Origin: an uncultured Actinomycetota bacterium | Lineage (GTDB): Bacteria > Actinomycetota > Humimicrobiia > Humimicrobiales > Humimicrobiaceae | DNA: 64,000 bases | NCBI GenBank assembly: GCA_964423265.1 | Contig: CAYREF010000003.1 | Span: 1,912 to 65,911 of the forward strand | Reading direction: 5' to 3' | Part shown: piece by piece, positions 23,821 to 38,888 of the stretch | Layout of the letters: the number at the start of each line of letters is the position of its first letter | Numbering within the stretch: the stretch's first letter is position 1 | Position numbers and translations under genes: made by a program | The notes under the pieces: model-generated | Database searches by the model: none | Told to the model about the DNA's origin: nothing | What the model saw: only the letters and a program-made list of their open reading frames with translations

Positions 23821-25629
23821 ATGGGCTTTGATTTTGAAAAAGATATAAATTACCAAAATTTTAAAACTAGCCTCAGGAAAAATTTATGCGGGGAACTGGA
23901 TACAGACAGCATAGGCGAAGAAGCTGTTTTATGCGGCTGGGTAAACAGCAGAAGGGATCATGGAAAACTGATATTTATAGACCTGAGGGATTTTTCAGGT
24001 ATTATCCAGTTGGTTTTTGATCCCAGCGTCAATAAAGAATCCTATAATCTTGCCAAGGAAGCCAGGGGCGAGTATGTTTTGAGGGTAAGTGGCAAAGTCA
24101 GAAAAAGGTCTGAAGAAACTATTAACTATGATTTAAAAACTGGGCAGATTGAAGTAGCTGTAAATGATGCTGAGATACTGGATAAGTCAAAAACCCCACC
24201 TTTTATGCTAAATGAAAGGGATAAGGTAGAAGAAACACATAGGTTAAAGTATAGATATATCGATTTGAGAACTCTCCAGATGCAAAAAAATATTAGGCTT
24301 AGGCACAAAGTTACTTCTGCAACCAGAAATTATTTAAACGGAAAAGGATTTTTAGAGATAGAAACTCCTATATTGGCAAAAAGCACTCCTGAGGGTGCCA
24401 GGGATTTTTTAGTTCCATCCCGACTAAATCCAGGAAAGTTTTATGCTTTGCCCCAATCCCCCCAATTGTTTAAGCAAATATTGATGTTTTCAGGATTTGA
24501 CCGGTGTTACCAGATAGCAAGGTGTTTTAGGGATGAAGACCTTAGAGCTGACAGACAACCTGAGTTTACCCAGATAGATCTGGAGATGTCTTTCGTAGAG
24601 CCGATTGATGTAATGAAAACTATAGAAGAGATGCTGGCTGAAATTTTCAGGAAGGTTTTAGGGACTGAGATAGAAAAGCCTTTTAAGAGGATAAGCTGGC
24701 AGGAGAGCATGGAAACATACGGAACAGATAAACCAGACCTCCGGTTCGGCCTTGAAATAAATGACATATCAGAAATTTTTGAGGGTACCGAGTTTAAAAT
24801 ATTTAAAGGGGTATTAAAAAACAAGGGAGTCATTAAAAGTATTGTGGTTGACAATTACCAGGATTTCAGCAGAAATGAATTGGACAATTTAATAAAAATT
24901 GCCAGGGATTGCGGCGCGGGGGGGCTGGTATGGATGAAGGTAGAAAAAGACCAGCTGGAATCCCCAATAGCCAAGTTCTTAAAGGAAGAGGAGAAGAAGG
25001 CACTGATTAAGCAACTAAATTTAAAAGATAAAAACCTGTTAATAATTGTTGCTGATGATTTCTTAATAACTTGTAAAACCCTAGGGACTATAAGGGGGCA
25101 TATAGCAAAGAAATTAAATATGGCAAAAAAGGGTTTTAAGCTGGTATGGGTTGATAACTTTCCACTATTTGAGTTGGATCAGAAACTTAACCGGATTTCA
25201 CCGGTACATCACCCATTTACCATGCCCAGTCAGGAAACTATAAAATTTTTAGAGGACGAACCTTTAAAGGTTAAATCATTAGCCTATGATATTGTGCTTA
25301 ACGGGGAAGAAATCGGGGGAGGCTCCATAAGGATAAATGACTTGGATTTACAAAATAAAATTTTTGAGTTATTAAGAATGGATAAAAAAACCATAGAAGA
25401 AAATTTTGGTTTTTTCATAAAGTCCCTGGAGTATGGAATCCCACCTCATGGCGGAATAGCCTTGGGTCTTGACAGATTGGTAATGCTGCTAGGCAACTTG
25501 GAAAGTATAAGGGACGTAATTGCTTTCCCCAAGACTCAATCTGCAATTTGCATGTTAACTGATTCGCCATCTCCGGTCACCAGGGAACAACTAAAAGAGG
25601 TAAATATTGATTTAACTTCGGAAGAGTAA
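23821..25629 (+). CDS. aspS: Aspartate--tRNA ligase
   Basis: OB-fold anticodon-binding domain (LCGWVNSRRDHGKLIFIDLRD) and class II motifs (FRDEDLRADRQPEFTQ; GGGSIRI). Confidence 0.9.
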   Translation: MGFDFEKDINYQNFKTSLRKNLCGELDTDSIGEEAVLCGWVNSRRDHGKLIFIDLRDFSGIIQLVFDPSVNKESYNLAKEARGEYVLRVSGKVRKRSEETINYDLKTGQIEVAVNDAEILDKSKTPPFMLNERDKVEETHRLKYRYIDLRTLQMQKNIRLRHKVTSATRNYLNGKGFLEIETPILAKSTPEGARDFLVPSRLNPGKFYALPQSPQLFKQILMFSGFDRCYQIARCFRDEDLRADRQPEFTQIDLEMSFVEPIDVMKTIEEMLAEIFRKVLGTEIEKPFKRISWQESMETYGTDKPDLRFGLEINDISEIFEGTEFKIFKGVLKNKGVIKSIVVDNYQDFSRNELDNLIKIARDCGAGGLVWMKVEKDQLESPIAKFLKEEEKKALIKQLNLKDKNLLIIVADDFLITCKTLGTIRGHIAKKLNMAKKGFKLVWVDNFPLFELDQKLNRISPVHHPFTMPSQETIKFLEDEPLKVKSLAYDIVLNGEEIGGGSIRINDLDLQNKIFELLRMDKKTIEENFGFFIKSLEYGIPPHGGIALGLDRLVMLLGNLESIRDVIAFPKTQSAICMLTDSPSPVTREQLKEVNIDLTSEE

Positions 25630-25647: not shown

Positions 25648-26535
25648 ATGAAAGACAAGCTTAGTGGAGTGTTTGTTCCAACCATTACCCCTTTTGTAGG
25701 AGATGAAGTACAGTATGCTAAATTAGAAGAGAACTTAATAAAATTAAATAAGTCTTCTATTACCGGCCATCTGGCGCTGGGTTCTAATGGAGAATACAAA
25801 AGCCTTACCAGAGATGAGCAGTTGAAGGTATTGGAAGTGTTTGTTAAAAACAAAGGTGATAAGGTAATAATGGCTGGCACAGGTTGCGAATCAACCACCG
25901 AAACCATCCAGCTTAGCAAGGAAGCTGAAAGGATTGGAGCAGATTTTGTAAGTGTTTTAACTCCAAGTTATTTTAAAAAAATAATAAATGACGAAGTACT
26001 TATAAATTATTATACAGAGATAGCAGACAACATAAATATACCTCTGCTAATTTATAATGCTCCCGGTTTTACCAGCGGAGTAACAATTTCTGCAAAGGCT
26101 GTGAGGAAACTAGCCCGGCATCCTAATATAGTGGGCATGAAAGATAGTTCTAAGGCTGGAATTATGGGTTATATTACTGCCACTATGGATATTGATGATT
26201 TCTATGTTCTAGCTGGTTCTATTAACTTCTTTTTTACAGGGCTTGTTTGTGGAGCTGTTGGCGGGGTTTTATCATTGTCAAATGCTATACCTAATCTTTG
26301 CTGTAAATTGTATAATTTATACTTAAATGGCAAAATTGAGGAAGCAAAACGCTTGCACTTAAAGCTATTTCAGGTTAACGGAAAGGTATCCGGGGCTAAT
26401 GCTGTAAGCGGGGTTAAAGCTGCTGCATCTATCTGCGGGTATTTTGGTGGGGAGCCTAGAAAGCCATTAGCAGCCCTGGCTCCGGAAGAAAAAAAAGGAC
26501 TTAAGGAATATTTTAAGCAAGAAGGATTGATTTAA
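25648..26535 (+). CDS. DHDPS/N-acetylneuraminate-lyase-family class I aldolase or dehydratase (paralogue 1)
   Basis: TPF...GSNGEY motif and Schiff-base lysine context (IVGMKDSSK). Only 18 bp after aspS, with an AAGGAGG RBS. Confidence 0.75.
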   Translation: MKDKLSGVFVPTITPFVGDEVQYAKLEENLIKLNKSSITGHLALGSNGEYKSLTRDEQLKVLEVFVKNKGDKVIMAGTGCESTTETIQLSKEAERIGADFVSVLTPSYFKKIINDEVLINYYTEIADNINIPLLIYNAPGFTSGVTISAKAVRKLARHPNIVGMKDSSKAGIMGYITATMDIDDFYVLAGSINFFFTGLVCGAVGGVLSLSNAIPNLCCKLYNLYLNGKIEEAKRLHLKLFQVNGKVSGANAVSGVKAAASICGYFGGEPRKPLAALAPEEKKGLKEYFKQEGLI

Positions 26536-27510
26536 ATGGCAAAGGTATTGTTGGGACAAAAAATACACAAGGATGCAATAAATTTTCTCAAAAACAAAGG
26601 TTTTGAGGTCATTGTTTCCAGCTCTCCGGAGGATGAAGTGGTGAGAAAGCAAATTAAAGATATTGATGGCCTTATTGTAAGGACTGCTACCAAATTAAGC
26701 AGAGAGACAATATTGGCGGCAAAAAGGCTGAAAGTTATAGGAAGAACAGGAAAAGGGGTGGACAATGTAGATGTAAAAGCTGCTTCAGAAAAAAATATTT
26801 TCGTGTGTAACGCCCCTGAAGCCAATATTGAGACAGTGGCAGAGCATGCTATTGCCTTTATGCTTGTTCTTGCTAAAAATTTGAAAGCCATGGACAATGC
26901 AGTAAGGGGCTTAAGGTGGAAGATAAGGAATAACTATATTCCCATAGATATTTCTGGAAAAATTTTAGGATTAGTTGGTTTTGGCAATATTGGCAGGGCA
27001 ATGGCCAGAAAATGTTATAATGCATTTAACATGGATATAATCGCCTATGATCCTTTTTTACCTGAAGGTTTAGAAGTTAATTTCCCCTTTAAGCTTAAAG
27101 GTAGTTTGGATGAGGTATTTATGGAAGCAGACTTTGTGTCCCTGCATATTCCTTATACTAAAGAGAATCATCATCTGGTTGGAAAAAACCTTTTGAGTAA
27201 AATGAAGAAAGGCTCCTTTTTGATAAACACTTCACGCGGAGGAATTGTAGATGAAAAAGCATTGGCTGGTATTCTAAAAGATGGAGGCATAGGCGGGGCT
27301 GCTTTGGATGTATTTGAAAACGAGCCTCCTAAAAAAAAGAACCCGCTATTAGGTATTGAAAGCGTTATCCTTACACCGCATTCTGCAGCCTTAACCGGTG
27401 AAAGTTCCAGGAGAATGGCTATGCATGCAGCAGAAGGAGTAACAGATGTTTTAGAGGGGCGAAAACCCCGGTGGGTATTTAACAGGGATAGCATTAAAGC
27501 AGGCAAATAA
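26536..27510 (+). CDS. D-isomer-specific 2-hydroxyacid dehydrogenase (paralogue 1)
   Basis: GLVGFGNIGRAMARK Rossmann motif and catalytic His in TPHSAALT. Its start abuts the upstream stop. Confidence 0.8.
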   Translation: MAKVLLGQKIHKDAINFLKNKGFEVIVSSSPEDEVVRKQIKDIDGLIVRTATKLSRETILAAKRLKVIGRTGKGVDNVDVKAASEKNIFVCNAPEANIETVAEHAIAFMLVLAKNLKAMDNAVRGLRWKIRNNYIPIDISGKILGLVGFGNIGRAMARKCYNAFNMDIIAYDPFLPEGLEVNFPFKLKGSLDEVFMEADFVSLHIPYTKENHHLVGKNLLSKMKKGSFLINTSRGGIVDEKALAGILKDGGIGGAALDVFENEPPKKKNPLLGIESVILTPHSAALTGESSRRMAMHAAEGVTDVLEGRKPRWVFNRDSIKAGK

Positions 27511-27573
27511 TTTTTGCATTTTTTTAAACGGATAATTTATATAGTATGCTGTTAATCATATAAGGAGGTTAAA

Positions 27574-27969
27574 ATGAAATATGTAAAAAATATACAAGAT
27601 TTAAAGGCTGATATTGATCCCAGGTCCTTAAGGGATAGGGTAAAAAAGCGGGACAAAGCTATATTAAGAGACACAAATTATGTAATTGATCCTGAAGATG
27701 AAGGTTGTGAGTCAAGGAGGCTAACTCTAGGCCACACCATAATTTATCCTACCGGTACTACTACGGGGCACTCACATGATGATATGGAAGAAGTATACTA
27801 TGTAGTAATGGGTAAAGGAGTTATGGTTGTTGGAGATGATGAGTATGATATTAGGCAGGGTGATGCTCTATACGTGCCTCCTGGAGAGTTTCATACAACC
27901 AAGCAAAGGGGAAATTTACCCCTTATCGTGGTTTGGGTAACTTGCAAGGTTGATCCTGATGAAAGATAA
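27574..27969 (+). CDS. Cupin-domain protein with cPGI-like metal-site motifs (possible sugar or sugar-phosphate isomerase)
   Basis: TTGHSHDDMEEVYY (TxGHxHx4EEvY) and PPGEFHTT (PPxxxH); 131 aa. Confidence 0.55.
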   Translation: MKYVKNIQDLKADIDPRSLRDRVKKRDKAILRDTNYVIDPEDEGCESRRLTLGHTIIYPTGTTTGHSHDDMEEVYYVVMGKGVMVVGDDEYDIRQGDALYVPPGEFHTTKQRGNLPLIVVWVTCKVDPDER

Positions 27970-28001
27970 GAAATAAAATTTTTCGAATAGGGGAGAAAGC
28001 T

Positions 28002-29444
28002 ATGATAAGAGAAAAATTACTAATTGGTGGAGAATGGGTAAAAGCAGAAGCTAAGGACACCATGGAGGTAATTAATCCGGCTTATGGAGAAGTTTTTGGG
28101 GAAGTCCAAAAAGCCCGCAGGAAAGATGTATGTAAGGCTATTAATGCTGCCGGTGAAGCATTTGGTAAATGGTCTAAACTAACTCCTTTCGAAAGGGGAG
28201 AGTACCTCAGGAAAGCCAGTGACATGGTATATGAAAGAGTAGATGAGATTGCCAAACTTATGACCCAGGAAGAAGGGAAGCCTCTAAAGGAAGCTGCAGG
28301 AGAAGTTAAAAAAGGTGCAAAGATTTTAGATTATTATGCCGAAGAGGGTGAAAGAGTGTATGGAAGGATTATTGCCAATGAGGATAAAAATATGGAAAGC
28401 AGAGTAATATATCAACCGATTGGAGTGGCAGGAGCTATTTCTCCCTGGAATTATCCCATTGAATTGCTTGCATGGAAAGTTGGAGGTGCCCTTGCTTCTG
28501 GCTGTACTGTAGTTGCAAAGCTGCCATCAGAAACGCCTTTATCTCCTCTTGCTTTTATTAAATGCCTTGTGGATGCAGGTGTACCTGATGGGGTAGTAAA
28601 TGCAATTACCGGTTCTGGCTCCGAAGTGGGCCCAATACTTTTTAATAGCAAAAAAGTAAAAAAGATTGCTTTTACAGGCTCAACCAGTACTGGAAGGGAA
28701 GTTCTAAAGGGTTGTGCGGACACATTTAAAAAGGTATCTGTAGAATTAGGCGGAAGTCTTCCCATGGTCATATGCAAGGATTGTAATCTTGATAAGGCTG
28801 TAGAAGGAGCTGTAAGAAGATCATTTAGGAATATGGGCCAGATATGCATAGCTGTAAACAGGATTTATGTGGATGCGGCTATATATGAAGATTTTATCGA
28901 AAAATTTGCAGAACAGGCAGGAAAGCTAACTATTGGCGACGGATTAAAAGAAGATTGTAATTTGGGACCTATGTGTACTACCGGTGGGGTAAAAACAGCA
29001 AAAAGGCATATAGAAGATGCAGTATCAAAGGGGGCTAAAGTTGCTTGCGGCGGGGGAAAGCCCTCTGCAGAAAAGTATAAGAAAGGTTATTATTTCCAGC
29101 CCACAATTCTCCGTGATGTTGACCATAGTATGCTGGTTATGCAGGAAGAGACCTTTGGTCCGGTAGTCGGGGTCATGTCTTTTAAGACATTAGAGGAAGC
29201 TGTAGAGCTTGCCAATGATTCTCCTTACGGGTTGGCCGCAATTGTATTTACTGAAAGCTTAAGCATAACAAACAGGCTATCGCTGGAAATAGAGGCTGGA
29301 AATGTAGCTATCAATAATGTGGATGCAGGCGTTATAAATGCACCTTACGGGGGATGGAAAGAAAGTGGCTATGGGCATGAGCATGGGCCTGAAGGTTTAT
29401 ACGAGTATCTGTTAATTAAGCATATAAGGCTCCGTTATCTCTAA
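28002..29444 (+). CDS. NAD(P)+-dependent aldehyde dehydrogenase (hydrolytic ALDH, paralogue 1)
   Basis: General-base motif ELGGSLP, catalytic Cys in GQICIAVNRIYV, NAD site FTGSTSTG. Confidence 0.85.
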   Translation: MIREKLLIGGEWVKAEAKDTMEVINPAYGEVFGEVQKARRKDVCKAINAAGEAFGKWSKLTPFERGEYLRKASDMVYERVDEIAKLMTQEEGKPLKEAAGEVKKGAKILDYYAEEGERVYGRIIANEDKNMESRVIYQPIGVAGAISPWNYPIELLAWKVGGALASGCTVVAKLPSETPLSPLAFIKCLVDAGVPDGVVNAITGSGSEVGPILFNSKKVKKIAFTGSTSTGREVLKGCADTFKKVSVELGGSLPMVICKDCNLDKAVEGAVRRSFRNMGQICIAVNRIYVDAAIYEDFIEKFAEQAGKLTIGDGLKEDCNLGPMCTTGGVKTAKRHIEDAVSKGAKVACGGGKPSAEKYKKGYYFQPTILRDVDHSMLVMQEETFGPVVGVMSFKTLEEAVELANDSPYGLAAIVFTESLSITNRLSLEIEAGNVAINNVDAGVINAPYGGWKESGYGHEHGPEGLYEYLLIKHIRLRYL

Positions 29445-29479
29445 AGATAATTTGCTAATTATAAGCAAGGAGAATTCAA

Positions 29480-31024
29480 ATGGCAAATAAATATATAATT
29501 GGCATAGATATAGGTACTACTGGCTGTAAATCGATTATGGTTGATGCAAATGGCCAGCTGATATGCTCTGCAACAGAAGAATACCCCCTGTATACGCCTA
29601 ATCCCGGCTGGGCAGAACAGAATCCTGGCGACTGGTGGGATGCAACAGTTAAAACTTTACAAAGAATCATTAAAGAAAGTGCGGTCCCTACAGAAGAGAT
29701 AAAGGGAATAGGTCTTTCTGGACAAATGCATGGCTTGGTACCATTGGATAAGGATGGGGAGGTTGTAAGGCCTGCATTTCTTTGGAATGACCAAAGGACA
29801 GAAAAACAGTGCAGGGAAATTATTGCTGCTGCAGGCGGAGAAAAAGAATTATTAAAGTATACCAACAATAGCATGCTTCCAGGTTATACCGGCGGAAAGA
29901 TACTTTGGCTAATGCAAGAAGAGCCCGGAAATTTTAAAAAGTCAAAAATTTTTTTGAATCCAAAAGATTATATTAGGTATAAGCTTACTGGAAAATTTGC
30001 TACTGAAGTATCAGATGCCTCGGGGACTGGGTTATTTGATGTGGAAAATAGAAGATGGAGTGAAGAGCTACTAGAAATTTTAAAAATCCCTAAAAAGCTA
30101 CTGCCGCAGTGCTATGAGTCTCCCGAGGTTACTGGTTATGTAACAGTGGAAGTATCTACATTGGCCGGCCTTAAAGAAAATACTCCAGTAGTCGGGGGAG
30201 GGGGAGACTCTGTTGTACAAACTACCGGAACCGGCCTTATAAACGAGGGGATATTAGGGCTAACCCTTGGCACTGCAGGAATTGTAGCTATGGGGCTAGA
30301 AAGATTTAAGTTTAATTCGACTGGAAAGCTACAAATATTTTGTAATAATGCCCCAAATAAATGGCATATAATGGGGGTAACTTTGGCTGCAGGAGGGTCA
30401 TTTCATTGGTTTAAAAATAATTTATGCAAGCATGAAATAAGGGTGGCAGAAAAAACAGGCCAGAGTGTTTTTGAAATAATAAATAAAAGTATTGAAAAGC
30501 AAACAGAACCAGGGAGTAAAAATCTGGTATTCTTACCTTATTTAATTGGTGAAAGATGTCCTTACCCTGATCCAAATGCCAAAGGTGTTTTCGTGGGATT
30601 AACCTTAAGGCATACCCATGCAGACATGGCCAGGAGTGTAATGGAAGGTGTAGGTTTCAGCCTAAAACAGGTTTATGATTTAATAATTGATATGGATAGA
30701 AATCTTGCTGTAAACGAGATACGGACTTCTGGAGGAGGCTCTTCCAGCCTTCTTTGGAGGCAAATTATTGCAGATATTTTCCAACTTCCGGTAAAGACTG
30801 TTAGTGGAAGCAAAGAAGGCGGAGCTTACGGAGCGGCATTAGTTGCTGGAACCGGCTGTGGCATATGGTCTAGCATGGAAGAAGCAACCAAGGTGCTGAA
30901 GGTAGAAACAGAGTTGTTACCAGATAAGAAAAATAAAGGAATTTATACTCAACTGTATGGGGTTTATGCCAAACTTTACAACAATTTAAAAGAAGGTTTT
31001 GACGCTTTATCAACTATTAAATAA
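29480..31024 (+). CDS. FGGY-family carbohydrate kinase (xylulokinase/gluconokinase-like)
   Basis: N-terminal IGIDIGTTGCKS, FGGY N- and C-domains, GGGSSS. Confidence 0.8.
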   Translation: MANKYIIGIDIGTTGCKSIMVDANGQLICSATEEYPLYTPNPGWAEQNPGDWWDATVKTLQRIIKESAVPTEEIKGIGLSGQMHGLVPLDKDGEVVRPAFLWNDQRTEKQCREIIAAAGGEKELLKYTNNSMLPGYTGGKILWLMQEEPGNFKKSKIFLNPKDYIRYKLTGKFATEVSDASGTGLFDVENRRWSEELLEILKIPKKLLPQCYESPEVTGYVTVEVSTLAGLKENTPVVGGGGDSVVQTTGTGLINEGILGLTLGTAGIVAMGLERFKFNSTGKLQIFCNNAPNKWHIMGVTLAAGGSFHWFKNNLCKHEIRVAEKTGQSVFEIINKSIEKQTEPGSKNLVFLPYLIGERCPYPDPNAKGVFVGLTLRHTHADMARSVMEGVGFSLKQVYDLIIDMDRNLAVNEIRTSGGGSSSLLWRQIIADIFQLPVKTVSGSKEGGAYGAALVAGTGCGIWSSMEEATKVLKVETELLPDKKNKGIYTQLYGVYAKLYNNLKEGFDALSTIK

Positions 31025-31033
31025 GAGTTAAGG

Positions 31034-31663
31034 TTAGAAATACTTTTTTACAGCTTCTAGATGTTCAATTATCAAGGCTGAAGCTTCGTTAGGGTGGTTT
31101 TTTAAAATTTCTTCTATTATCCTATTATGGTATTTAAGGCTTTCTTTTAGCTTAGTTCTAAAGCCCTTAGTATAGGATAAGAGCAAAATATTAAATGAAT
31201 TATTTATATGCTTCAGGTAAGAATTTGCTGATGTTTCAAGAAGGTAAAGATGGAATTTTTTGTCTATTTCAAAATATTCGCTTGGATTTTTACCCTTTAC
31301 GGCTTGTTCAAATTTTTGCTTAAAATCCAAAAGTCTATCTTTTATGGAATTGTTAAGGTTTTCAGAAATTTTTTCTACTGCCAGGCTTTCAAAAGAGCCC
31401 CTTATTTCAAGAAGCTCGTAGAATTCCTGTTTTGAAATTTTTCGGACAAAAAAGCCTTTTCTAGGATGGTATTCTATAAGCCTTTCGTTCTGGAGGACTG
31501 ACAGAGCTTGTATTAAAGGAATCTTGCTTATACCCAGTCTTTCTGCCATTTTTTCCTGGATAATTTTTTCCCCGGGCTTAAGTAAGTCCTCAAGAATTAG
31601 GAGCTTAATTTTGCTGTAAGCCTGTTCACTTAAATTATTCTGCTTGATTTTGTTAATGTTCAT
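31034..31663 (-). CDS. GntR/FadR-family transcriptional regulator (FCD effector domain), paralogue A
   Basis: wHTH EKMAERLGISKIPLIQALSVLQNERLIEYHPRKGFFV followed by a helical effector domain. Confidence 0.8.
   Translation of the reverse strand: MNINKIKQNNLSEQAYSKIKLLILEDLLKPGEKIIQEKMAERLGISKIPLIQALSVLQNERLIEYHPRKGFFVRKISKQEFYELLEIRGSFESLAVEKISENLNNSIKDRLLDFKQKFEQAVKGKNPSEYFEIDKKFHLYLLETSANSYLKHINNSFNILLLSYTKGFRTKLKESLKYHNRIIEEILKNHPNEASALIIEHLEAVKKYF
31423..31582. repeat. 160-bp block identical to 32057..32216 (GntR HTH-coding segment); similarity continues at >90% to about 31640 and 32274
   Basis: Direct comparison of the two sequences. A second 49-bp identical block is at 31185..31233 and 31819..31867. 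Confidence 0.9.
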
Positions 31664-32294
31664 CTAAAAGATGTGACTCCTTTTTATGTTCTATATGGAC
31701 TTTCATTAATTTTAATGCTTCAGCCATTTCTTTTTTAAGTATTGCATTAATAATCTTTCTGTGGTAGTCCATGCTTAATTCAATTTTTGTCCTAAAGCCT
31801 TTGGTAAAGCAAAGAAGTAAAATATTAAATGAATTATTTATATGCTTCAGGTAAGAATTTGCTGATGCTTCAAAAAGAAAGTAATGGAATTTTTTATCAA
31901 CATCATAATATTTAATATAGTCTTTTTTTTCATTATATTTTTCGAAATCGCTTAAAAATTTCCGGAGTGTTTTTTTAACTCCCTCATTTAAATTGCCAAT
32001 TATTTTTTGCACTGCAAGGCATTCCAGGATTCTCCTTACGTCGATAAGGTCATAATATTCCTGTTTTGAAATTTTTCGGACAAAAAAGCCTTTTCTAGGA
32101 TGGTATTCTATAAGCCTTTCGTTCTGGAGGACTGACAGAGCTTGTATTAAAGGAATCTTGCTTATACCCAGTCTTTCTGCCATTTTTTCCTGGATAATTT
32201 TTTCCCCGGGCTTAAGCACGTCATCAAGAATTAGGAGCTTAATTTTGCCGTAAGCCTGTTCACTTAAATTATTTTGATTTATTTTTAAGTCCAT
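31653..32294 (-). CDS. GntR/FadR-family transcriptional regulator, paralogue B (tandem duplicate)
   Basis: The N-terminal HTH is nearly identical to paralogue A. The effector domain has diverged but keeps ANSYLKHINNSFNILLL. Confidence 0.8.
   Translation of the reverse strand: MDLKINQNNLSEQAYGKIKLLILDDVLKPGEKIIQEKMAERLGISKIPLIQALSVLQNERLIEYHPRKGFFVRKISKQEYYDLIDVRRILECLAVQKIIGNLNEGVKKTLRKFLSDFEKYNEKKDYIKYYDVDKKFHYFLFEASANSYLKHINNSFNILLLCFTKGFRTKIELSMDYHRKIINAILKKEMAEALKLMKVHIEHKKESHLLDEH
32057..32216. repeat. Second copy of the 160-bp identical block (see 31423..31582)
   Basis: Direct comparison. Confidence 0.9.
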
Positions 32295-32639
32295 ATTAGC
32301 TTTTTACATAATGCATTAGCTAAAAATAAAAGGCTTTTTTATTGATATATATTTTTTAGTATTGACATTATTTGCATACATTATACAATATTCATTAACA
32401 ACTTAAAATGTAAATTTTTAAAAAATCACTAAACATAGATTAAACAATAATTTTAAAGGGAAGAAGATAAATTTTTAAAATATTGTATACTGTATATGCT
32501 AAATAGGTTCCTTTGCCTGGTTTAGTATTTATTGATAGTAAAGAATTATAACTATAAAATTATTAACACAATGAGGTGAGATATAGAAAACCTACTTTGT
32601 TAATTTAAATTCCGTTGTAGAACCCAATTATTAGGATAG

Positions 32640-32885
32640 GAGGATGAATCTGATATACAATCCACAGTAAAAATAGTAGAATTCCAGGGGGATAGCACTG
32701 TGTTAACTTTAAAGCTTGATGATCCTGCTAATAGCGAAATATAGGTTACCACTTCAGTGGGAAGTGAAAGCTACAAGAGGAATGAAAAGTCCTGGCTAAA
32801 ATTTAAGCCAGAATTTGTGCACCTCTTTGATAAGGAAGAAAAAGCAATAATAAAAAGTCTGGGTATCGAAAGCATTATTTGCTAA
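32640..32885 (+). pseudogene. Decayed 3' remnant of a sugar ABC-transporter ATP-binding gene (MalK/MsmX-type TOBE domain) with an internal TAG
   Basis: A single frame reads EDESDIQSTVKIVEFQGDSTVLTLKLDDPANSEI*VTTSVGSESYKRNEKSWLKFKPEFVHLFDKEEKAI.... This matches the MalK C-terminus pattern (VEQLGNETQIHIQI...PERCHLFRED). There is no start codon and no ATPase domain upstream. Confidence 0.4.
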
Positions 32886-32947
32886 ACTAAAAATCAAAAG
32901 TGGTAAGCCGGATTTGGATTGCAAAAGAAATCTGGAAAGCTATAAAT

Positions 32948-33727
32948 ATGGGTAAAAAAAGAGACGCTCTATCATTTTTTAAACTAGATGGTAAAAAAGC
33001 AGTGGTAACAGGTGCGGGAAGAGGCCTGGGAAAAGAATTAGCAATAGGTCTGGCAGAAGCAGGAGCAGATGTAGCGTTAGTTGACAAGCTGAAAAAAGAA
33101 GCTTCCGATGGCTGCAAGCAAATAGAGGCAATGGGAAGGAATGCAATTGCCATTGAAGCGGATGTAAGCAAGGAGGAGGATGTAAAAGCTGCAGTTCATT
33201 CTATAAAAAAAGAATTTGGGGAAATAAACATTCTGGTTTGTAATGCCGGCATAGTTAGCTGGTCTCCAGCTGAGGAAATGTCTATAGAAGACTGGCAAGA
33301 AGTTATTGATGTTAACCTGACTGGTGTTTTCCTTTTTTGCAAATGGGTAGCAAAAGAAATGAAAAAACAGGGGGGAGGCAGCATAATTAATATATCCTCT
33401 ATGTCCGGAATTATAGTAAATGTTCCCCAAAAACAATGTCATTATAATGCTTCCAAGGCAGGAGTTAGCCATCTTACAAAATCATTGGCAGTTGAATGGG
33501 CTCCTTACAATATAAGGGTAAATGCAATCTGTCCCGGTTACATTATGACCCCTCTTTTGAAACTGGCGGATAAAAAGTACATAGATGAATGGACTTCATA
33601 TACCCCCCAGAAAAGGATACCTGACCCTTCTGAGTTTAAGGGCTTGTGCATATTCTTAGCATCAAGCGCCTCCAGTTATGTAACTGGTAGTGCTATTGTC
33701 GCAGATGGGGGATATAGTTTGTGGTAA
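32948..33727 (+). CDS. SDR-family oxidoreductase (KduD/gluconate-5-dehydrogenase-like)
   Basis: GKKAVVTGAGRGLGKELA and a YxxxK active site (YNASKAG). ATG at 32948 is preferred over the ORF-track start. Confidence 0.8.
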   Translation: MGKKRDALSFFKLDGKKAVVTGAGRGLGKELAIGLAEAGADVALVDKLKKEASDGCKQIEAMGRNAIAIEADVSKEEDVKAAVHSIKKEFGEINILVCNAGIVSWSPAEEMSIEDWQEVIDVNLTGVFLFCKWVAKEMKKQGGGSIINISSMSGIIVNVPQKQCHYNASKAGVSHLTKSLAVEWAPYNIRVNAICPGYIMTPLLKLADKKYIDEWTSYTPQKRIPDPSEFKGLCIFLASSASSYVTGSAIVADGGYSLW

Positions 33728-33766
33728 TTTTAAGCGTTTAATAATATTTTTAAAGGAGGATAAAAT

Positions 33767-35110
33767 ATGGCTGTTAATTCTAAGCTTAAATTCGGATTTA
33801 TAAACCTGGCTCTAGATTTTTTAGAAAAGGAAGATCTGGAAACTGCAACTAAATATGCGAATGAAGCAAAGGGATACCTGCAGGAAGAATTGGGGATATC
33901 TATAGTAGAGTCAGCTTCTTCGGTGGATAGTAGGGCTAAATCCAGGATTGCATGGCAAAAATTTAAGGAAGAAAATGTTGATGCAGTAGTAATATTTAAT
34001 GGCACTTTTAGTACTGGAGAAGTGGCTACCGAAGTTATTAGAAATCTGGATGTACCTTACCTTATTTGGGGAATAGAAGAATTTGCCATAAAAAAACATA
34101 ACTTTACTGGCTCTATGGTAGGAGTTTTGCCTTTGGGAACTGTGTTTAAGAATTTTGGGAGGCCTTTCTCCTTTGCTTATGGAAATGTTGGGGGCGGAAA
34201 ACCCAAGAAAAATGTTAATAAGTTTGTAAAGGCTGTGGAGGCTATTTCTTATTTAAATGAAGCCACTATCGGCGTTATAGGAATGAGGCCTGATGGCTTT
34301 GAAATTTCAGATTTTGATGAGCTGGCTATAAAGAATAAGTTTGGAACTACCATTACAAAAGTATCCATGTACGGTTTTTCTAAAGTAATTGAAAGTGTAA
34401 CTGAAAAAGAAATAGACAAGGATATGGAGCAACAGAAGAAAATTTTTAATATTGCTGATAAAGATCTTGAGGAAGCCAGGGGAATTTCAAAGGTTTATCT
34501 TGCTACTAAAAAAGCTGTTGAAGAAAACAACTTAAATGCATACGCTCCGGATTGCTGGCCTGAATTGAGAGATATTGATTGTACCCCGATTTGCCCGGCA
34601 AACGGAAGATGCAATGCGGAAGGAGTAATGGCATCTTGTGAATGTGATGTTGACGGGGCTTTAACCTTAATGTTGCAACATGTTTTGGCTGAATCAACCC
34701 CATGGTTTGCGGATTTTGTAAATATTATAGAGGAAAATGATACTTTACTTTTCTGGCATTGCGGTAATGCCCCCTATAATTTATCAACGGATAAACCAAA
34801 AATAGAAAAGATTTTTGGCGGTCTCTCACAGGTAGCTGCTCTAAAAAGCGGAGTGGTAACAGTTTGCAGGCTTAATTCTATAAGGGGCGAATATGTATTG
34901 CATGCTGGCATTGGGGAAGCAGTTGAAACAGAGCCGCTGCTAAAAGGCAGCAACCTTTCAATAAGGATGGAGGGCGGCAATTTAGAATTTGTGGAATCAT
35001 TGCTAGATAATGGAATCCCCCACCATAATGGATTGGTTTACGGGGATATCCTGGAAGAATTAGAAGAATTTGCAAAACTCATGCAAATACCTTTTATTGT
35101 AAGTAAATAA
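33767..35110 (+). CDS. Sugar isomerase of the L-arabinose/L-fucose isomerase (AraA/FucI, COG2407-like) family
   Basis: 447 aa; the N-terminal Rossmann-like region and C-terminal part (WHCGNAPYN...HAGIGE) loosely resemble AraA. Family-level call only. Confidence 0.45.
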   Translation: MAVNSKLKFGFINLALDFLEKEDLETATKYANEAKGYLQEELGISIVESASSVDSRAKSRIAWQKFKEENVDAVVIFNGTFSTGEVATEVIRNLDVPYLIWGIEEFAIKKHNFTGSMVGVLPLGTVFKNFGRPFSFAYGNVGGGKPKKNVNKFVKAVEAISYLNEATIGVIGMRPDGFEISDFDELAIKNKFGTTITKVSMYGFSKVIESVTEKEIDKDMEQQKKIFNIADKDLEEARGISKVYLATKKAVEENNLNAYAPDCWPELRDIDCTPICPANGRCNAEGVMASCECDVDGALTLMLQHVLAESTPWFADFVNIIEENDTLLFWHCGNAPYNLSTDKPKIEKIFGGLSQVAALKSGVVTVCRLNSIRGEYVLHAGIGEAVETEPLLKGSNLSIRMEGGNLEFVESLLDNGIPHHNGLVYGDILEELEEFAKLMQIPFIVSK

Positions 35111-35126
35111 TTTTTAAGGAGGAAAT

Positions 35127-36602
35127 ATGAAAAAGTATAAACTATTTATCAATAATCAATGGGTAGATGCTGAAGATAAGAAAACCTTTGTATCTAAATG
35201 CCCTGCTACAGGCGAAGAACTTGCAGAACTGGCCCTGGCCAAGGAGAAGGATGTGGACAAAGCAGTAGCGGCAGCAAGGGCGGCTTTCCCTAAATGGGCT
35301 GCAACCAGCGGAGATGACAGGGCAAACTTGATGATGAAAGCTATGGATATAATGAAAAAAAGACATGATGAGCTGGCAGAAATAGAAGCAAAAGATGTGG
35401 GAAAACCAATAAAGGAAACTCAAGATGTTGACATTGAATATGCTTTAATGGCTATGGAGTATTTTTCGAATAAGGCCAGACAAATAAGGGGAGATGAAGT
35501 TCCAATTGAAGGCGGAGAAACTTTATGTTATGAGACCTGGGAACCTTATGGAGTAGTTGCCTCAATTATCCCATGGAATTTTCCTGTCCATATAGCTACC
35601 AGAACCATTTGTCCTGCACTTTCAGCAGGTAATACCGTTGTACTAAAAGCTTCCTCGCTCGCACCAATTACTTGCCAGATATTGGGTGAAATATTTTTGG
35701 AAGCAGGATATCCGGAAGGTGTGCTAAACATTGTTTCAGGATCAGGTAGTATAACAGGCGAGGCTATGTTAGTACATCCTGATATCGACATGATATCATT
35801 TACTGGATCTTCTGCAGTTGGTAGGCGGTGCATGCAGGCTGCAGCTGAATCAAATCTTAAAAAAGTTATACTCGAGCTTGGCGGCAAAGGTCCATTTATA
35901 GCAACTAAGGACTGCAGGCTAAGCGATGCTGTAAATTCTCTCATACTGGGTTTCTGTTTCATGCAGGGTGAAGTTTGCTGTGCTTCTACCAGATTATATG
36001 CACATGAGGATATTTATGATGAATTTGTGGACTTATTGGTAAAAAGGTGCCAGAAGATAAAACTTGGGGACATAATGGATTCTGGAACGCAAATGGGTTC
36101 GCTAATAGATGAAGACCGGCTAAAGGCTGTGGACGGCTATGTTAAAAGAGCCGTAAAAGACGGCGCTAAGCTGTTATGTGGTGGCGAAAGGGTAACTGAT
36201 CCTCCTATGGATAAAGGATATTACTACCCACCCACAGTACTTGAAGTTGATGATAACAAGATGGAATGTGTACAGGAAGAGATATTTGGTCCTGTAGTTA
36301 CGGTTATGAAATACAGAGATTTTGATGAAGCCCTAAGGCTTGCCAATGATACGGTTTATGGCCTGGGAGCAACAGTGTGGAGTGAAGATGTTAGAAAACT
36401 AGTTAAAGCTACCAGGACTTTTGATGCGGGCATAGTTTGGATGAATACAAATGTAATGTCTAAGATAGAAGCTTCTTATGGCGGAAACAAAATGAGTGGA
36501 CTTGGAAGAGAAGGTGGAGAAGTAGGTCTGATGGAATACCTCAAATGCAAAAACAATGTTCTTTTCCTGGGAGAAGAAGGTAACTATTACGATTTTAAAT
36601 AA
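35127..36602 (+). CDS. NAD(P)+-dependent aldehyde dehydrogenase (hydrolytic ALDH, paralogue 2)
   Basis: ELGGKGP, catalytic Cys in GEVCCASTRLY, FTGSSAVG. Confidence 0.85.
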   Translation: MKKYKLFINNQWVDAEDKKTFVSKCPATGEELAELALAKEKDVDKAVAAARAAFPKWAATSGDDRANLMMKAMDIMKKRHDELAEIEAKDVGKPIKETQDVDIEYALMAMEYFSNKARQIRGDEVPIEGGETLCYETWEPYGVVASIIPWNFPVHIATRTICPALSAGNTVVLKASSLAPITCQILGEIFLEAGYPEGVLNIVSGSGSITGEAMLVHPDIDMISFTGSSAVGRRCMQAAAESNLKKVILELGGKGPFIATKDCRLSDAVNSLILGFCFMQGEVCCASTRLYAHEDIYDEFVDLLVKRCQKIKLGDIMDSGTQMGSLIDEDRLKAVDGYVKRAVKDGAKLLCGGERVTDPPMDKGYYYPPTVLEVDDNKMECVQEEIFGPVVTVMKYRDFDEALRLANDTVYGLGATVWSEDVRKLVKATRTFDAGIVWMNTNVMSKIEASYGGNKMSGLGREGGEVGLMEYLKCKNNVLFLGEEGNYYDFK

Positions 36603-36620
36603 ATAATGCTGTATTTATAA

Positions 36621-36667
36621 GAAAAAAAAAGGGGGCTCCTTGCTGGAGCCTCTCCTTTGTAATTTTT
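36621..36667 (+). terminator. Probable intrinsic terminator after ALDH-2 (A-run, GGCTCC-ttgct-GGAGCC hairpin, T-rich tail)
   Basis: Seen: aaaaaaaaagggGGCTCCttgctGGAGCCtctcctttgtaatttttt. Confidence 0.4.
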
Positions 36668-36714
36668 TAAAAATTACTATATGATTGAAGCCACTTTATA
36701 GAAGGATGATATAG

Positions 36715-37683
36715 ATGGGCGATGAGAGATTAAAAGTAGTATTTACTGATTTTGATTTTAATGATGTAAATATAGAAAAAGAGGTATTAGGGGAAACAAA
36801 CTGCGATATAGTTGAACTCCAAACCAAGGATGAAGATAAGCTAGCTGCAGAATGCGCCGATGCTGATGGATTAATAGTCCAGTATGCACCTATAACTGAA
36901 AAAGTTATAAACAGCATGAAAAAGTGTCAAGTTATATCCAGGTATGGAATTGGTGTAGATACTATAGATTTAGCCGCAGCTTCCAAAAAAGGAATACATG
37001 TATGTAATGTCCCTGATTATTGTCTGGATGAAGTTGCAGACCACAGCCTGGGGTTGATGTTCTCTTTGGGCAGGAAAATTGTAGCTCTGGACAATGCAGT
37101 GAAAAATGGCAAGTGGGATGCAGTTGGCGTAGCCCGGCCTATTTTTAATTTTAAGAGGCTGGTACTGGGAATTATCGGATTCGGAAAAATACCCCAGCAC
37201 TTATACCCTAAAACAGAACCCCTTTTTGGTAAAACTTTAGTATTTGACCCCTATATATCCAATGAAATAAAGGAAAAATTTAGCCTTAACATGGCCAGTT
37301 TTTACGAGATACTCCTGAACTCAGATTTTATATCTATACACTGTCCTTTAAATGATGCTACTTACCATATGTTTGATGAACGGGAATTCCAGCTTATGAA
37401 GCCAACTGCCTTTTTAGTTAATACGTCAAGGGGTGGTATAATAAATACCAAAGCCCTTTATCTGGCATTGCTTAACGGGCATCTGGCGGGGGCAGGCTTG
37501 GATGTTTTGGAAGAAGAACCTCCGGGAATGGACAATGAGCTGGTAAAGATGGATAATGTGATAGTAACCCCTCATGCTGGATTTTATTCAGAGTCCTCAA
37601 TTGAGGATTTAAAATATAAGACGGCTCAGAACATAGTTAAAATTTTAAAAGATGACCAGCCGCAAAACGTGGTAAATAAATAG
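36715..37683 (+). CDS. D-isomer-specific 2-hydroxyacid dehydrogenase (paralogue 2; atypical GxGxxG)
   Basis: Catalytic and NAD-binding domains with TPHAGFYS. The dinucleotide motif reads GIIGFGKIPQ. Confidence 0.75.
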   Translation: MGDERLKVVFTDFDFNDVNIEKEVLGETNCDIVELQTKDEDKLAAECADADGLIVQYAPITEKVINSMKKCQVISRYGIGVDTIDLAAASKKGIHVCNVPDYCLDEVADHSLGLMFSLGRKIVALDNAVKNGKWDAVGVARPIFNFKRLVLGIIGFGKIPQHLYPKTEPLFGKTLVFDPYISNEIKEKFSLNMASFYEILLNSDFISIHCPLNDATYHMFDEREFQLMKPTAFLVNTSRGGIINTKALYLALLNGHLAGAGLDVLEEEPPGMDNELVKMDNVIVTPHAGFYSESSIEDLKYKTAQNIVKILKDDQPQNVVNK

Positions 37684-37706
37684 GATTTTGAAAGGAGAAA
37701 TATATT

Positions 37707-38888
37707 ATGGATATCCCTGAAGGTGTAATAGTTGCAATGCTTACACCGTTTGATGAAAAAGGCAGAGTAGACGAAATTGAAGTCAGAAGGTTTGTGGACT
37801 TCTTAATCAACAAGGGAGTTGACGGGTTATTTCCGGTTGCTTCCTGCGGTGAATATACTCATATGGATATGGGGGAACGAAAATTCTTAATTGATGTGGT
37901 GGTTGATGAAGCAAATGGAAGGGTTCCTGTAATTCCAGGATCCGGAGCTACTTGCTACCACAAATCTATAGATATAGCTAGCTATGCAAAGGATAAAGGC
38001 TGTGAGGCGGTAGTTTTACACGGCCCTTATTTTTTCCAGAATGCCAAGGAAGTTGTTGAAGGGCACTTAAGGAAAGTTGCAGAATCTGTGGATATACCCA
38101 TCTTCCTTTATAACATTCCTTTCTTTGCCAATGAAATTACTCCTCAGATGGCTGAAAAGCTGTGTGGGATGCCTAATGTGGTGGGTATTAAAGATTCTTC
38201 AGGTAATATGGTAAATGTTATGAATCTTTTAGAGATGACTAGAAAAATAGATCCGGATTTTAGGGTACTAGTAGGTGCAGAAGAGATAATGCTTCCTGCA
38301 CTCATGATGGGAGGCAAGGGTTGCATGACGGCAACAGCTGGAATTTTACCTGAATTTATGGTAGGAATTTATGAAAATTTTAAAAATAAGAATATCCAGA
38401 ACGCTTATAATCTGCAATTTGCCATACTTTCCCTTATAAGGGAAATGAAGAGTGTAAATTTCCCCCAGGGTTTTAAGGAAGCATTAGATTTAAGGGGTAT
38501 AAAGGTAGGCCCTCCCAAGATGAATTATCCCGAACAAGAACTGGCCAAAATTGCTGACCTCAAGACAAGGCTAGAAATGGAAATGAAAAACCTGCTTGAG
38601 AGGTATTTTACGGGAGTTCCGCTAAACTATAGAGCAGACAAGCAATTTCTACAGAAATTCAGCTATCCAGCAGAAACTGCTCCTGAACAATCCGGGGAAA
38701 AGAAATACAATGATTGTTTAGTTTGTGGAATGTGCGAGGGAGATGTTGAGTGCAAGGTGGTCCCTTGTGACAGCATGCAGGAAAAGCCTTTAAGTAATTC
38801 TAAAACTGAAAAAATATCCAATGACATAGATGAAGACCAATTAAAAGAAATTATTACAAAAACTATAAAAAAAGTTCTAGGCAACTGA
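37707..38888 (+). CDS. DHDPS/NAL-family class I aldolase (paralogue 2) with a ~90-aa C-terminal tail: Cys cluster plus terminal amphipathic helix
   Basis: Core motifs VASCGEYTHMD and VVGIKDSSG. The tail reads ...CLVCGMCEGDVECKVVPC...EDQLKEIITKTIKKVLGN*. Confidence 0.7.
   Translation: MDIPEGVIVAMLTPFDEKGRVDEIEVRRFVDFLINKGVDGLFPVASCGEYTHMDMGERKFLIDVVVDEANGRVPVIPGSGATCYHKSIDIASYAKDKGCEAVVLHGPYFFQNAKEVVEGHLRKVAESVDIPIFLYNIPFFANEITPQMAEKLCGMPNVVGIKDSSGNMVNVMNLLEMTRKIDPDFRVLVGAEEIMLPALMMGGKGCMTATAGILPEFMVGIYENFKNKNIQNAYNLQFAILSLIREMKSVNFPQGFKEALDLRGIKVGPPKMNYPEQELAKIADLKTRLEMEMKNLLERYFTGVPLNYRADKQFLQKFSYPAETAPEQSGEKKYNDCLVCGMCEGDVECKVVPCDSMQEKPLSNSKTEKISNDIDEDQLKEIITKTIKKVLGN

Follow-up and report, generated by a model that had tools for sequence, protein, structure and literature searches.

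How can two adjacent regulator genes be identical, base for base, over one segment of their coding sequence when silent sites in the rest have diverged to saturation? We address this question for a tandem pair, called here B and A, in a stretch of 64,000 nucleotides from an uncultured Actinomycetota bacterium (contig CAYREF010000003.1 of assembly GCA_964423265.1, positions 1,912 to 65,911), which as a whole is referred to as the window. Both genes encode regulators with a winged helix-turn-helix (wHTH) followed by an FCD effector domain:

31653..32294, minus strand: gene B, the upstream GntR/FadR-type (FCD) regulator, 213 amino acids; defined by its open reading frame (ORF), PF00392 and PF07729, an AlphaFold2 (AF2) model and a tree of FCD domains
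31034..31663, minus strand: gene A, the downstream GntR/FadR-type (FCD) regulator, 209 amino acids; defined by its ORF, Pfam and the FCD tree

Our answer is that the duplication is old and that gene conversion has repeatedly made parts of the two copies alike; this evolutionary claim, as opposed to a recent duplication, is a strong one, and we hold it with high confidence.

Exact identity between the two genes was found in two blocks, here called tract 1 and tract 2, and in both of them the copies are separated by the same offset of 634 bp:

32057..32216, minus strand: conversion tract 1, B copy; an exact 160 bp (codons 27-79) that takes in the entire wHTH and stops where the linker helix begins
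31423..31582, minus strand: conversion tract 1, A copy; exact match of 32057-32216
32217..32285, minus strand: 5′ extension of tract 1 in B; covers the N-terminus with helix alpha1 and has ~90% identity with A 31583-31651
31583..31651, minus strand: 5′ extension of tract 1 in A; counterpart of B 32217-32285
31819..31867, minus strand: conversion tract 2, B copy; 49 bp exact, residues ~143-159, the end of alpha6 and alpha7 of the FCD domain
31185..31233, minus strand: conversion tract 2, A copy; exact match of 31819-31867

Beyond tract 1, the near-identity of A with B continues to 31639, making 217 bp with 4 mismatches. On re-alignment, the preliminary description of this locus proved accurate in its block coordinates, the two minus-strand ORFs, the peptides it quoted and the extent of this near-identity. 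Over the whole gene, A and B mismatch at 158 of 624 aligned sites; when these sites were permuted 20,000 times, no identical run was longer than 51 bp, compared to the 160 bp observed (analytic P ~8e-19). Nei-Gojobori counts per segment revealed no differences in tract 1 at either synonymous (0/34) or non-synonymous sites (0/125), while in the flanking FCD regions the proportion of synonymous differences (pS) was 0.78-0.82, that is, saturated. Protein identity is 92% over residues 1-79 and 50% over the FCD domain, and the effector body between the blocks has thus diverged as extensively as had been described. No third copy of the repeat was found within the 64-kb window.

The age of the duplication can be judged from related genomes, which by their source names are Candidatus Humimicrobiaceae and Actinomycetota metagenome-assembled genomes (MAGs). 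A B-A pair that is convergent with an FGGY kinase/aldehyde dehydrogenase/cupin operon is also present in L009, L001, L002, L003-L008, L011, L078 and L079. Two of these are close relatives: L009 (GCA_051744245) is a fully syntenic sister genome, 94-95% identical to the window, and L001 (GCA_046483145) is ~99% identical to L009. The same B-A-kinase synteny was found in five more distant Humimicrobiia lineages, namely L002 (GCA_054606855), L003-L008 (from JGI and Logan metagenomes), L011, L078 and L079. The pairs of L002, L003, L011, L078 and L079 have a paralogue DNA identity of 59-70% and lack the long identical wHTH block, their longest exact runs being 14-38 bp, and their protein identity is 51-69% over residues 1-79 and 47-63% over the FCD domain. 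Since the codons that correspond to tract 1 have a pS of 0.53-0.71 in these five unconverted pairs (Nei-Gojobori), protein constraint does not explain the identity of the tract. In addition, an A-type gene stands alone beside the kinase operon in L130-L133, and a B-type gene stands alone in L134 and L077. A neighbour-joining tree of the FCD domains placed A with P0032 and P0034, which are single-copy regulators adjoining the same FGGY kinase operon, and placed B with P0006, P0007 and P0020 in a separate clade. In the neighbour-joining tree of the N-terminal parts, both window copies grouped with both L009 copies and P0012 in one clade, a topology that conflicts with that of the FCD (C-terminal) tree. 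The occurrence of the same two distinct genes in conserved synteny, together with the diverged pairs of other lineages, shows that the duplication is old, predating the split of several Humimicrobiia lineages.

These findings bear on the proposal, one of two in the preliminary description, that the pair arose by a recent duplication. The tandem layout and the identical 5′ parts would fit a recent event after which the effector domains diverged very fast, possibly under positive selection, before the wHTH had had time to change. However, saturated silent sites in the FCD domain lie beyond the reach of selection on the protein, the same pair with the same neighbours is found diverged over its full length in at least five other lineages, and the FCD domains of A and B belong to different clades of the family; the co-substitutions described below, moreover, require exchange after a species split. 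The FCD tree also speaks against the distant pairs having arisen by duplications of their own, and we consider a recent duplication extremely unlikely. Orthologous pairs without elevated identity in the wHTH region had been named beforehand as evidence that would speak against conversion: the distant pairs indeed lack such elevation, whereas the close relatives show it, and its absence in the former therefore dates the conversion and does not refute it.

The comparison with the sister genome indicates when conversion took place. L009 carries the 160-bp identical block with the same boundaries as the window, and within tract 1 the two genomes differ at 8 concerted sites, where both window copies agree with each other and differ from both L009 copies, with 0 A-versus-B and 0 private sites. 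Outside the tracts there was 1 concerted site as against 122 conserved A-versus-B and 20 private sites, and the distribution of concerted and A-versus-B sites inside and outside the tract was strongly skewed (Fisher P = 5e-12). Among the 8 sites in tract 1, one is non-synonymous (VLQNER vs VLRNER). Further co-substituted sites were found in tract 2, which has 2, and in the 5′ extension, where 4 (alignment columns 51-72) are mixed with old A/B differences and private changes. Given an orthologue divergence of 4.7%, ~7.6 A/B differences would be expected per genome if no conversion had occurred after the split, and the probability of observing none is ~5e-4 for each. With zero differences observed, the alignment demonstrates at least one conversion after the species split, and most likely there were one or more in each of the two lineages, the window and L009. 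New mutations do arise in the block, as seen from a private change of K to Q in the A copy of L001.

Three marks of gene conversion are present at this locus: paralogues closer than orthologues within the tract, synonymous identity that sets the tract apart from its flanks, and a duplication that predates the event. Ongoing or recurrent conversion that homogenises the wHTH part, the second of the two earlier proposals, is thus borne out by a dS of 0 in the tract, the co-substitution with L009 and the conflicting domain trees. On this account, the two direct copies, 634 bp apart, have recombined by homology, repeatedly and non-reciprocally, in the lineage of this genome and its close relatives; this keeps the 160-bp wHTH segment identical, as well as the short FCD segment of tract 2, while the remaining FCD domain stays ~50% identical in protein with its silent sites saturated.

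Identity at silent sites could also be accounted for by purifying selection at the nucleotide level, if an embedded DNA or RNA element, such as an internal promoter, a small RNA or a binding site, had frozen both copies. Against this, the block differs from L009 at 8 of 160 sites, which is the gene-wide rate, and always in both copies; furthermore, the same region is 28-34% different between the paralogues of other lineages, and no Rfam match was found at E <= 0.1 in 30000-34000. As the block changes at a normal rate and matches no Rfam family, a frozen element of this kind is excluded for practical purposes, its probability being negligible.

An assembly artefact, in which the sequence of one paralogue was collapsed or copied into the other or the repeat was mis-threaded, deserves more weight, since the contigs come from short-read MAGs and repeats of this size do disturb assembly. 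The L001 contig, for instance, has its position 1 inside tract 1, as an unresolved exact repeat would cause, and another locus, L137, is a loop contig. Nevertheless, the same structure is seen in the window, L009 and L001, which were assembled independently and come from different samples, and contig breaks and loop contigs are also expected from a real exact repeat. The collapse of bubbles in de Bruijn graphs needs k-mers common to both sides. The copies diverge straight after the 3′ edge of the block, with mismatches from columns 245-246, and the last co-substituted site lies 19 bp from that edge, so that differing copies would not be expected to form a collapsible bubble and to be merged. 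These considerations make an artefact very unlikely.

The extent of the converted segments also differs between the two genomes. Tract 2 measures 80 bp in L009 compared to 49 bp in the window, and a conversion of the B copy of L009 from A over alignment columns 406-432 is supported, because the B copy of the window, like P0006, retains the B-type FHYFLFE motif in this region; the direction from A to B would follow from that alignment.

Why should these two segments, and not others, have been converted? According to the AF2 model, the residues of B encoded by tract 1, 27-79, form beta1, alpha2, the recognition helix (alpha3) and the wing, the tract stopping at the first turn of the linker helix, while residues ~143-159 of tract 2 correspond to a motif that is conserved across the family. 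The longest exact A/B matches in the unconverted pairs occur at alignment columns 172-225 and 421-485, in the same two places as the tracts. We infer from the aligned pairs that tract placement is as predicted by homology-seeded recombination and that an adaptive cause is not needed: the exact homology retained by the paralogues would mainly set the positions of the tracts by seeding recombination, and an identical island, once formed, would be self-sustaining.

Other lineages show a different distribution of identity along the genes. In L011 (4001-5264) and L079 (3001-4261), raised DNA identity was observed in the C-terminal FCD half and not in the wHTH, with runs of 35-38 bp and a pS of 0.38-0.53, against saturation or near-saturation in other pairs, a pattern suggestive of conversion elsewhere in the genes that was older or partial. 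Furthermore, the loop contig L137 is 772 bp long, the sum of a 631-bp period and k = 141, from which it follows that the pair of another lineage (L136/L137) has an exact A/B repeat of 140 bp or more within its FCD half. The protein P0004 had been considered as a natural A/B chimera produced by unequal crossing-over; this was rejected, because its ORF had been called around the circular L137 loop and the protein is false. Since identity is raised in the FCD domain in these other lineages, conversion appears to be recurrent in this gene pair but does not look aimed at the DNA-binding domain. The view that it is the DNA-binding part that is converted consequently holds for the window and L009 and fails as a rule, given L011 and L079 and probably L136/L137. 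Deletion or amplification of one copy by recombination between the repeats, which had also been proposed, is mechanistically plausible, the contig breaks and the loop contig at the repeat in other assemblies being indirect evidence only.

A variant of the conversion account gives selection a part in it, keeping wHTH conversions because both sensors would then act on one operator, as a two-input gate or as heterodimers, and setting the 3′ boundary at the domain border. Tract 1 does end, at its 3′ side, exactly at the border between the wHTH and the linker, and it does so in both the window and L009; in addition, the transporter operon next to B (see below) has been deleted here, leaving the operator facing a catabolic operon, so rewiring could matter. 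On the other hand, simple inheritance of an ancestral tract would likewise give the window and L009 the same boundaries, a neutral process limited by homology suffices because the tracts match the most conserved stretches of unconverted pairs, and the raised identity in L011, L079 and probably L136/L137 lies in the FCD half rather than the wHTH. We regard this variant as unlikely; selection for a common wHTH may have acted, but the account of recurrent, homology-seeded conversion does not require it.

What would conversion of the wHTH mean for the two regulators? Both proteins belong to the FadR subfamily (FCD type) of the GntR family by Pfam cut-offs for both domains, with 44.6 bits for A and 45.1 bits for B against PF00392 (GntR wHTH; cut-off 27) and 61.7 and 64.9 bits, respectively, against PF07729 (FCD; cut-off 24.3). 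The AF2 model of B, which has a predicted local distance difference test score (pLDDT) of 88, comprises alpha1-alpha2-alpha3 with a two-strand wing, followed past residue 77 by the six to seven helices of an all-helical FCD domain. The top PDB matches by sequence and fold were TM0439, PmiR, Atu1419/VanR and McbR, with an identity to the solved structures of just 16-25%. His137, His178, His200, Glu91 and Asp133 are invariant or nearly so in the family alignment, and this set of residues would fit a metal site like that of TM0439 in the FCD pocket, where in this subfamily the binding of an effector, often with the help of a metal, releases the DNA. The ORFs of B and A overlap by 11 bp, and because the ATG of A lies within the last 4 codons of B, the two genes are probably co-transcribed as one bicistronic unit.

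The identity of the two wHTH sequences points to the same operator specificity for both proteins, and candidate sites lie in the DNA upstream of B:

32372..32388, no strand assigned: predicted shared operator TTGCATAcatTATACAA; 1 mismatch to TTGTATA-N3-TATACAA, lying 77 bp ahead of the start codon of B
32479..32499, no strand assigned: second, degenerate operator-like site; its core TATACAATAT is exact at 32480-32489, and the full site has 3 mismatches
32362..32389, plus strand: best sigma-70-like intergenic promoter, TTGACA-16-TACAAT, 11/12

The site at 32372-32388 is the only match to the palindrome with <=1 mismatch in the 64 kb, and the 10-mer TATACAATAT occurs there in exactly 2 copies, both upstream of B. 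The degenerate site lies in inverted orientation ~100 bp from the first and is conserved in L009. The predicted promoter faces the operon of the divergent SDR gene and overlaps the predicted operator. In L009, L002, L003, L011, L078, L079, L134 and L012, the first GntR gene is likewise preceded, at ~100-310 bp, by a palindrome that is perfect or has 1 mismatch. In other loci, including those of Bacteroidota, Syntrophales and Spirochaetes, TATACAATAT lies mostly <100 bp upstream of GntR homologues, with the consensus TTGTATA-N3-TATACAA. These predicted sites are compatible with the GT...AC core NyGTNxACNy and with TKGTN2-3ACMA, the operator consensus reported for the FadR subfamily (PMC7641319). 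The palindrome is a candidate autoregulatory operator for a GntR/FCD clade that spans several phyla.

The same palindrome, often as TTGTATACAATATACAA, was seen mostly ~20-100 bp upstream of a GntR gene in L019, L021, L022, L029, L032, L039 and L045, and again, mostly at ~20-100 bp, in L050, L073, L096, L049, L129 and L134. Two further operator candidates within the window were dropped: one, at 27581-27597, coincides with the cupin start, where the conserved coding sequence MKYV.NIQ accounts for it, and neither this one nor the other, at 26308-26324 inside a DHDPS gene, is conserved as a site in L003, L004 and L130. The recognition helices differ in L002/L003 (ISKIPIIQAL vs ISIGMIIGAL).

The genes that such an operator might control belong to a sugar or sugar-acid island, flanked by aspS (23821-25629) and alaS (39447-42119), within which the regulators lie between two catabolic modules:

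25648..31024, plus strand: left catabolic module, with a DHDPS-family gene, 2-hydroxyacid dehydrogenase, cupin, aldehyde dehydrogenase and FGGY/xylulokinase-like kinase; convergent with A
32948..38888, plus strand: right catabolic module, with SDR, fucose-isomerase-like, aldehyde dehydrogenase, 2-hydroxyacid dehydrogenase and DHDPS-family genes; divergent from B
32640..32855, plus strand: C-terminal (TOBE) remnant of a MalK-type ABC ATPase with an in-frame stop, between B and the SDR gene

The start of the SDR gene was set at 32948 by the 259-amino-acid orthologue of L009. A complete ABC sugar transporter operon is divergent from B in L002/L003, whereas the window and L009 retain a 3′ relic of the ATPase only, indicating that the transporter has been lost in this lineage and that its operator/promoter region now faces the SDR operon. 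L009 has a longer ATPase fragment (4819-5232, 137 amino acids), the window having deleted ~350 bp more. Between B and the transporter operon, L003 has a 55-amino-acid ORF without a Pfam match (5717-5884, minus strand), also seen in L004-L008, which has no counterpart in the window. Both modules contain DHDPS-family, D-2-hydroxyacid dehydrogenase and aldehyde dehydrogenase paralogues, and neither DNA repeats nor conversion were found between these enzyme paralogues of the two flanking modules. The isomerase of the right module resembles fucose and sulfoquinovose isomerases. In the left module, the short conserved string TATGCTGTTAAT is located ~25-30 nucleotides upstream of the cupin start in the window (27511-27573), L009 and L130, and its counterpart in L003/L004 is ATTGTTAAT; this string may be an element of the promoter or 5′ untranslated region of the cupin/aldehyde dehydrogenase/kinase sub-operon.

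Taken together, these data suggest that in this genome A and B share intrinsic operator specificity and that both would bind the predicted palindrome at 32372-32388, in line with the earlier suggestion of one operator for both proteins, given that residues 27-79 are identical and that only one family-typical type of operator was found nearby. In the proposed model, B and A would be made from one transcript, each would repress at the shared operator and each would be released by its own effector, so that a single control point would receive input from two sensors that differ in their effector domains. For the divergent SDR-isomerase-dehydrogenase operon, and probably for B-A as well, both would probably have to be released before induction is full. 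These regulatory consequences are reasonable but unproven. A bolder version holds that concerted evolution limited to the wHTH is a selected device, which rewired A onto the operator of B, or the reverse, at about the time that the transporter operon was lost. If true, conversion would keep the DNA specificity shared so as to allow a two-ligand logic gate on one operator, or mixed dimers; we find this unlikely, and a little more so than selective retention of wHTH conversions in general.

Several observations weigh against our account and need to be set beside it. All sequences are short-read metagenome assemblies, so the perfect identity stands at the level of the assembly and not of the reads. 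The donor of tract 1 is ambiguous: its diagnostic residues are mixed between A-like and B-like, and its DNA identity to the outgroups is only slightly higher for B than for A in L002/L003 (0.72 vs 0.66) and equal in others. The GC content at third codon positions (GC3) of the tract, 0.36, resembles that of B-type orthologues, a likeness too weak to give a direction. The reading of tract 1 as B-derived, which came from L002/L003 alone, was dropped when KPGEKII, IPLIQ and VRKIS proved A-like with single-copy A-type relatives added. Cross-lineage orthology of the A genes is based on synteny and protein trees, the similarity of their C-terminal DNA being low. As for regulation, the promoter at 32362-32389 was called from its match to the consensus alone, the intergenic region yielded no convincing promoter for the B-A unit, and no operator for the left (kinase) module was found in the window or the compared loci; the search for shared palindromic operators that the preliminary description had proposed thus succeeded upstream of B and failed for the left module. 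With these points taken into account, recurrent gene conversion in an old tandem pair, along with the inferred sharing of an operator, is in our judgement still the best explanation and very probably correct.

If so, the locus offers a clean natural example of a transcription-factor paralogue whose DNA-binding specificity is set by recombination rather than by point mutation, and of a gene whose sensing domain and DNA-reading domain do not share one evolutionary history. For such regulators, trees of whole genes and the assignment of orthologues will mislead, and regulon predictions for paralogous GntR regulators must allow for shared operators. Exact repeats of this size also break or loop short-read assemblies and give rise to false 'chimeric' proteins in databases, of which P0004 is an example. 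Furthermore, TTGTATA-N3-TATACAA provides a testable operator for a GntR clade of several phyla.

The locus reveals no new mechanism, as both bacterial gene conversion and domain-level concerted evolution are established. Concerted evolution and gene conversion of bacterial paralogues are documented (PMC6053082; PMC1762029), and Santoyo and Romero 2005, as cited in PMC4256081, treat both processes in bacteria. The conversion of bacterial paralogues includes the PE_PGRS17/18 tandem pair of M. tuberculosis (PMC1762029), which, like B-A, consists of adjacent copies between which sequence is exchanged non-reciprocally. The B-A pair also resembles the cases of PMC6053082 in that the paralogues are closer than orthologues at synonymous and non-synonymous sites alike. 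Unlike these bacterial cases, B-A has been homogenised only in part, over one domain and a patch of 49-80 bp, and is otherwise saturated at silent sites; its conversion has a shallow time depth, at the level of species or genus, compared to the long-lasting cases of PMC6053082. The 26 long-lasting cases in that study include no transcription factor, and in the literature covered by our search no direct precedent was found for such conversion between paralogous transcription factors of bacteria, whether of the GntR family or another.

A closer parallel at the level of domains is provided by the modules of polyketide synthases (PKS) and nonribosomal peptide synthetases (NRPS), for which domain-level concerted evolution and a 'trapped in a cycle' model have been described (PMC4256081). 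There, as in B-A, some domains are homogenised by internal recombination while others escape through divergence or functional constraint. The PKS/NRPS domains, however, belong to repeated modules in giant enzymes, whereas B and A are two regulator genes, and the domain homogenised in them is the one that determines DNA-binding specificity. In architecture, both proteins are like the VanR-like FCD regulators TM0439 (3FMS/3SXY), Atu1419 and McbR, with an N-terminal wHTH and an all-helical FCD domain. Their predicted operator, as read from the sequence, is like that of AusR of Zobellia (PMC7641319), a promoter-overlapping palindrome upstream of the regulator gene in one to several copies. What distinguishes the B-A pair from TM0439, the VanR-type regulators and AusR is that two paralogues are encoded together and have one shared DNA-binding domain sequence.

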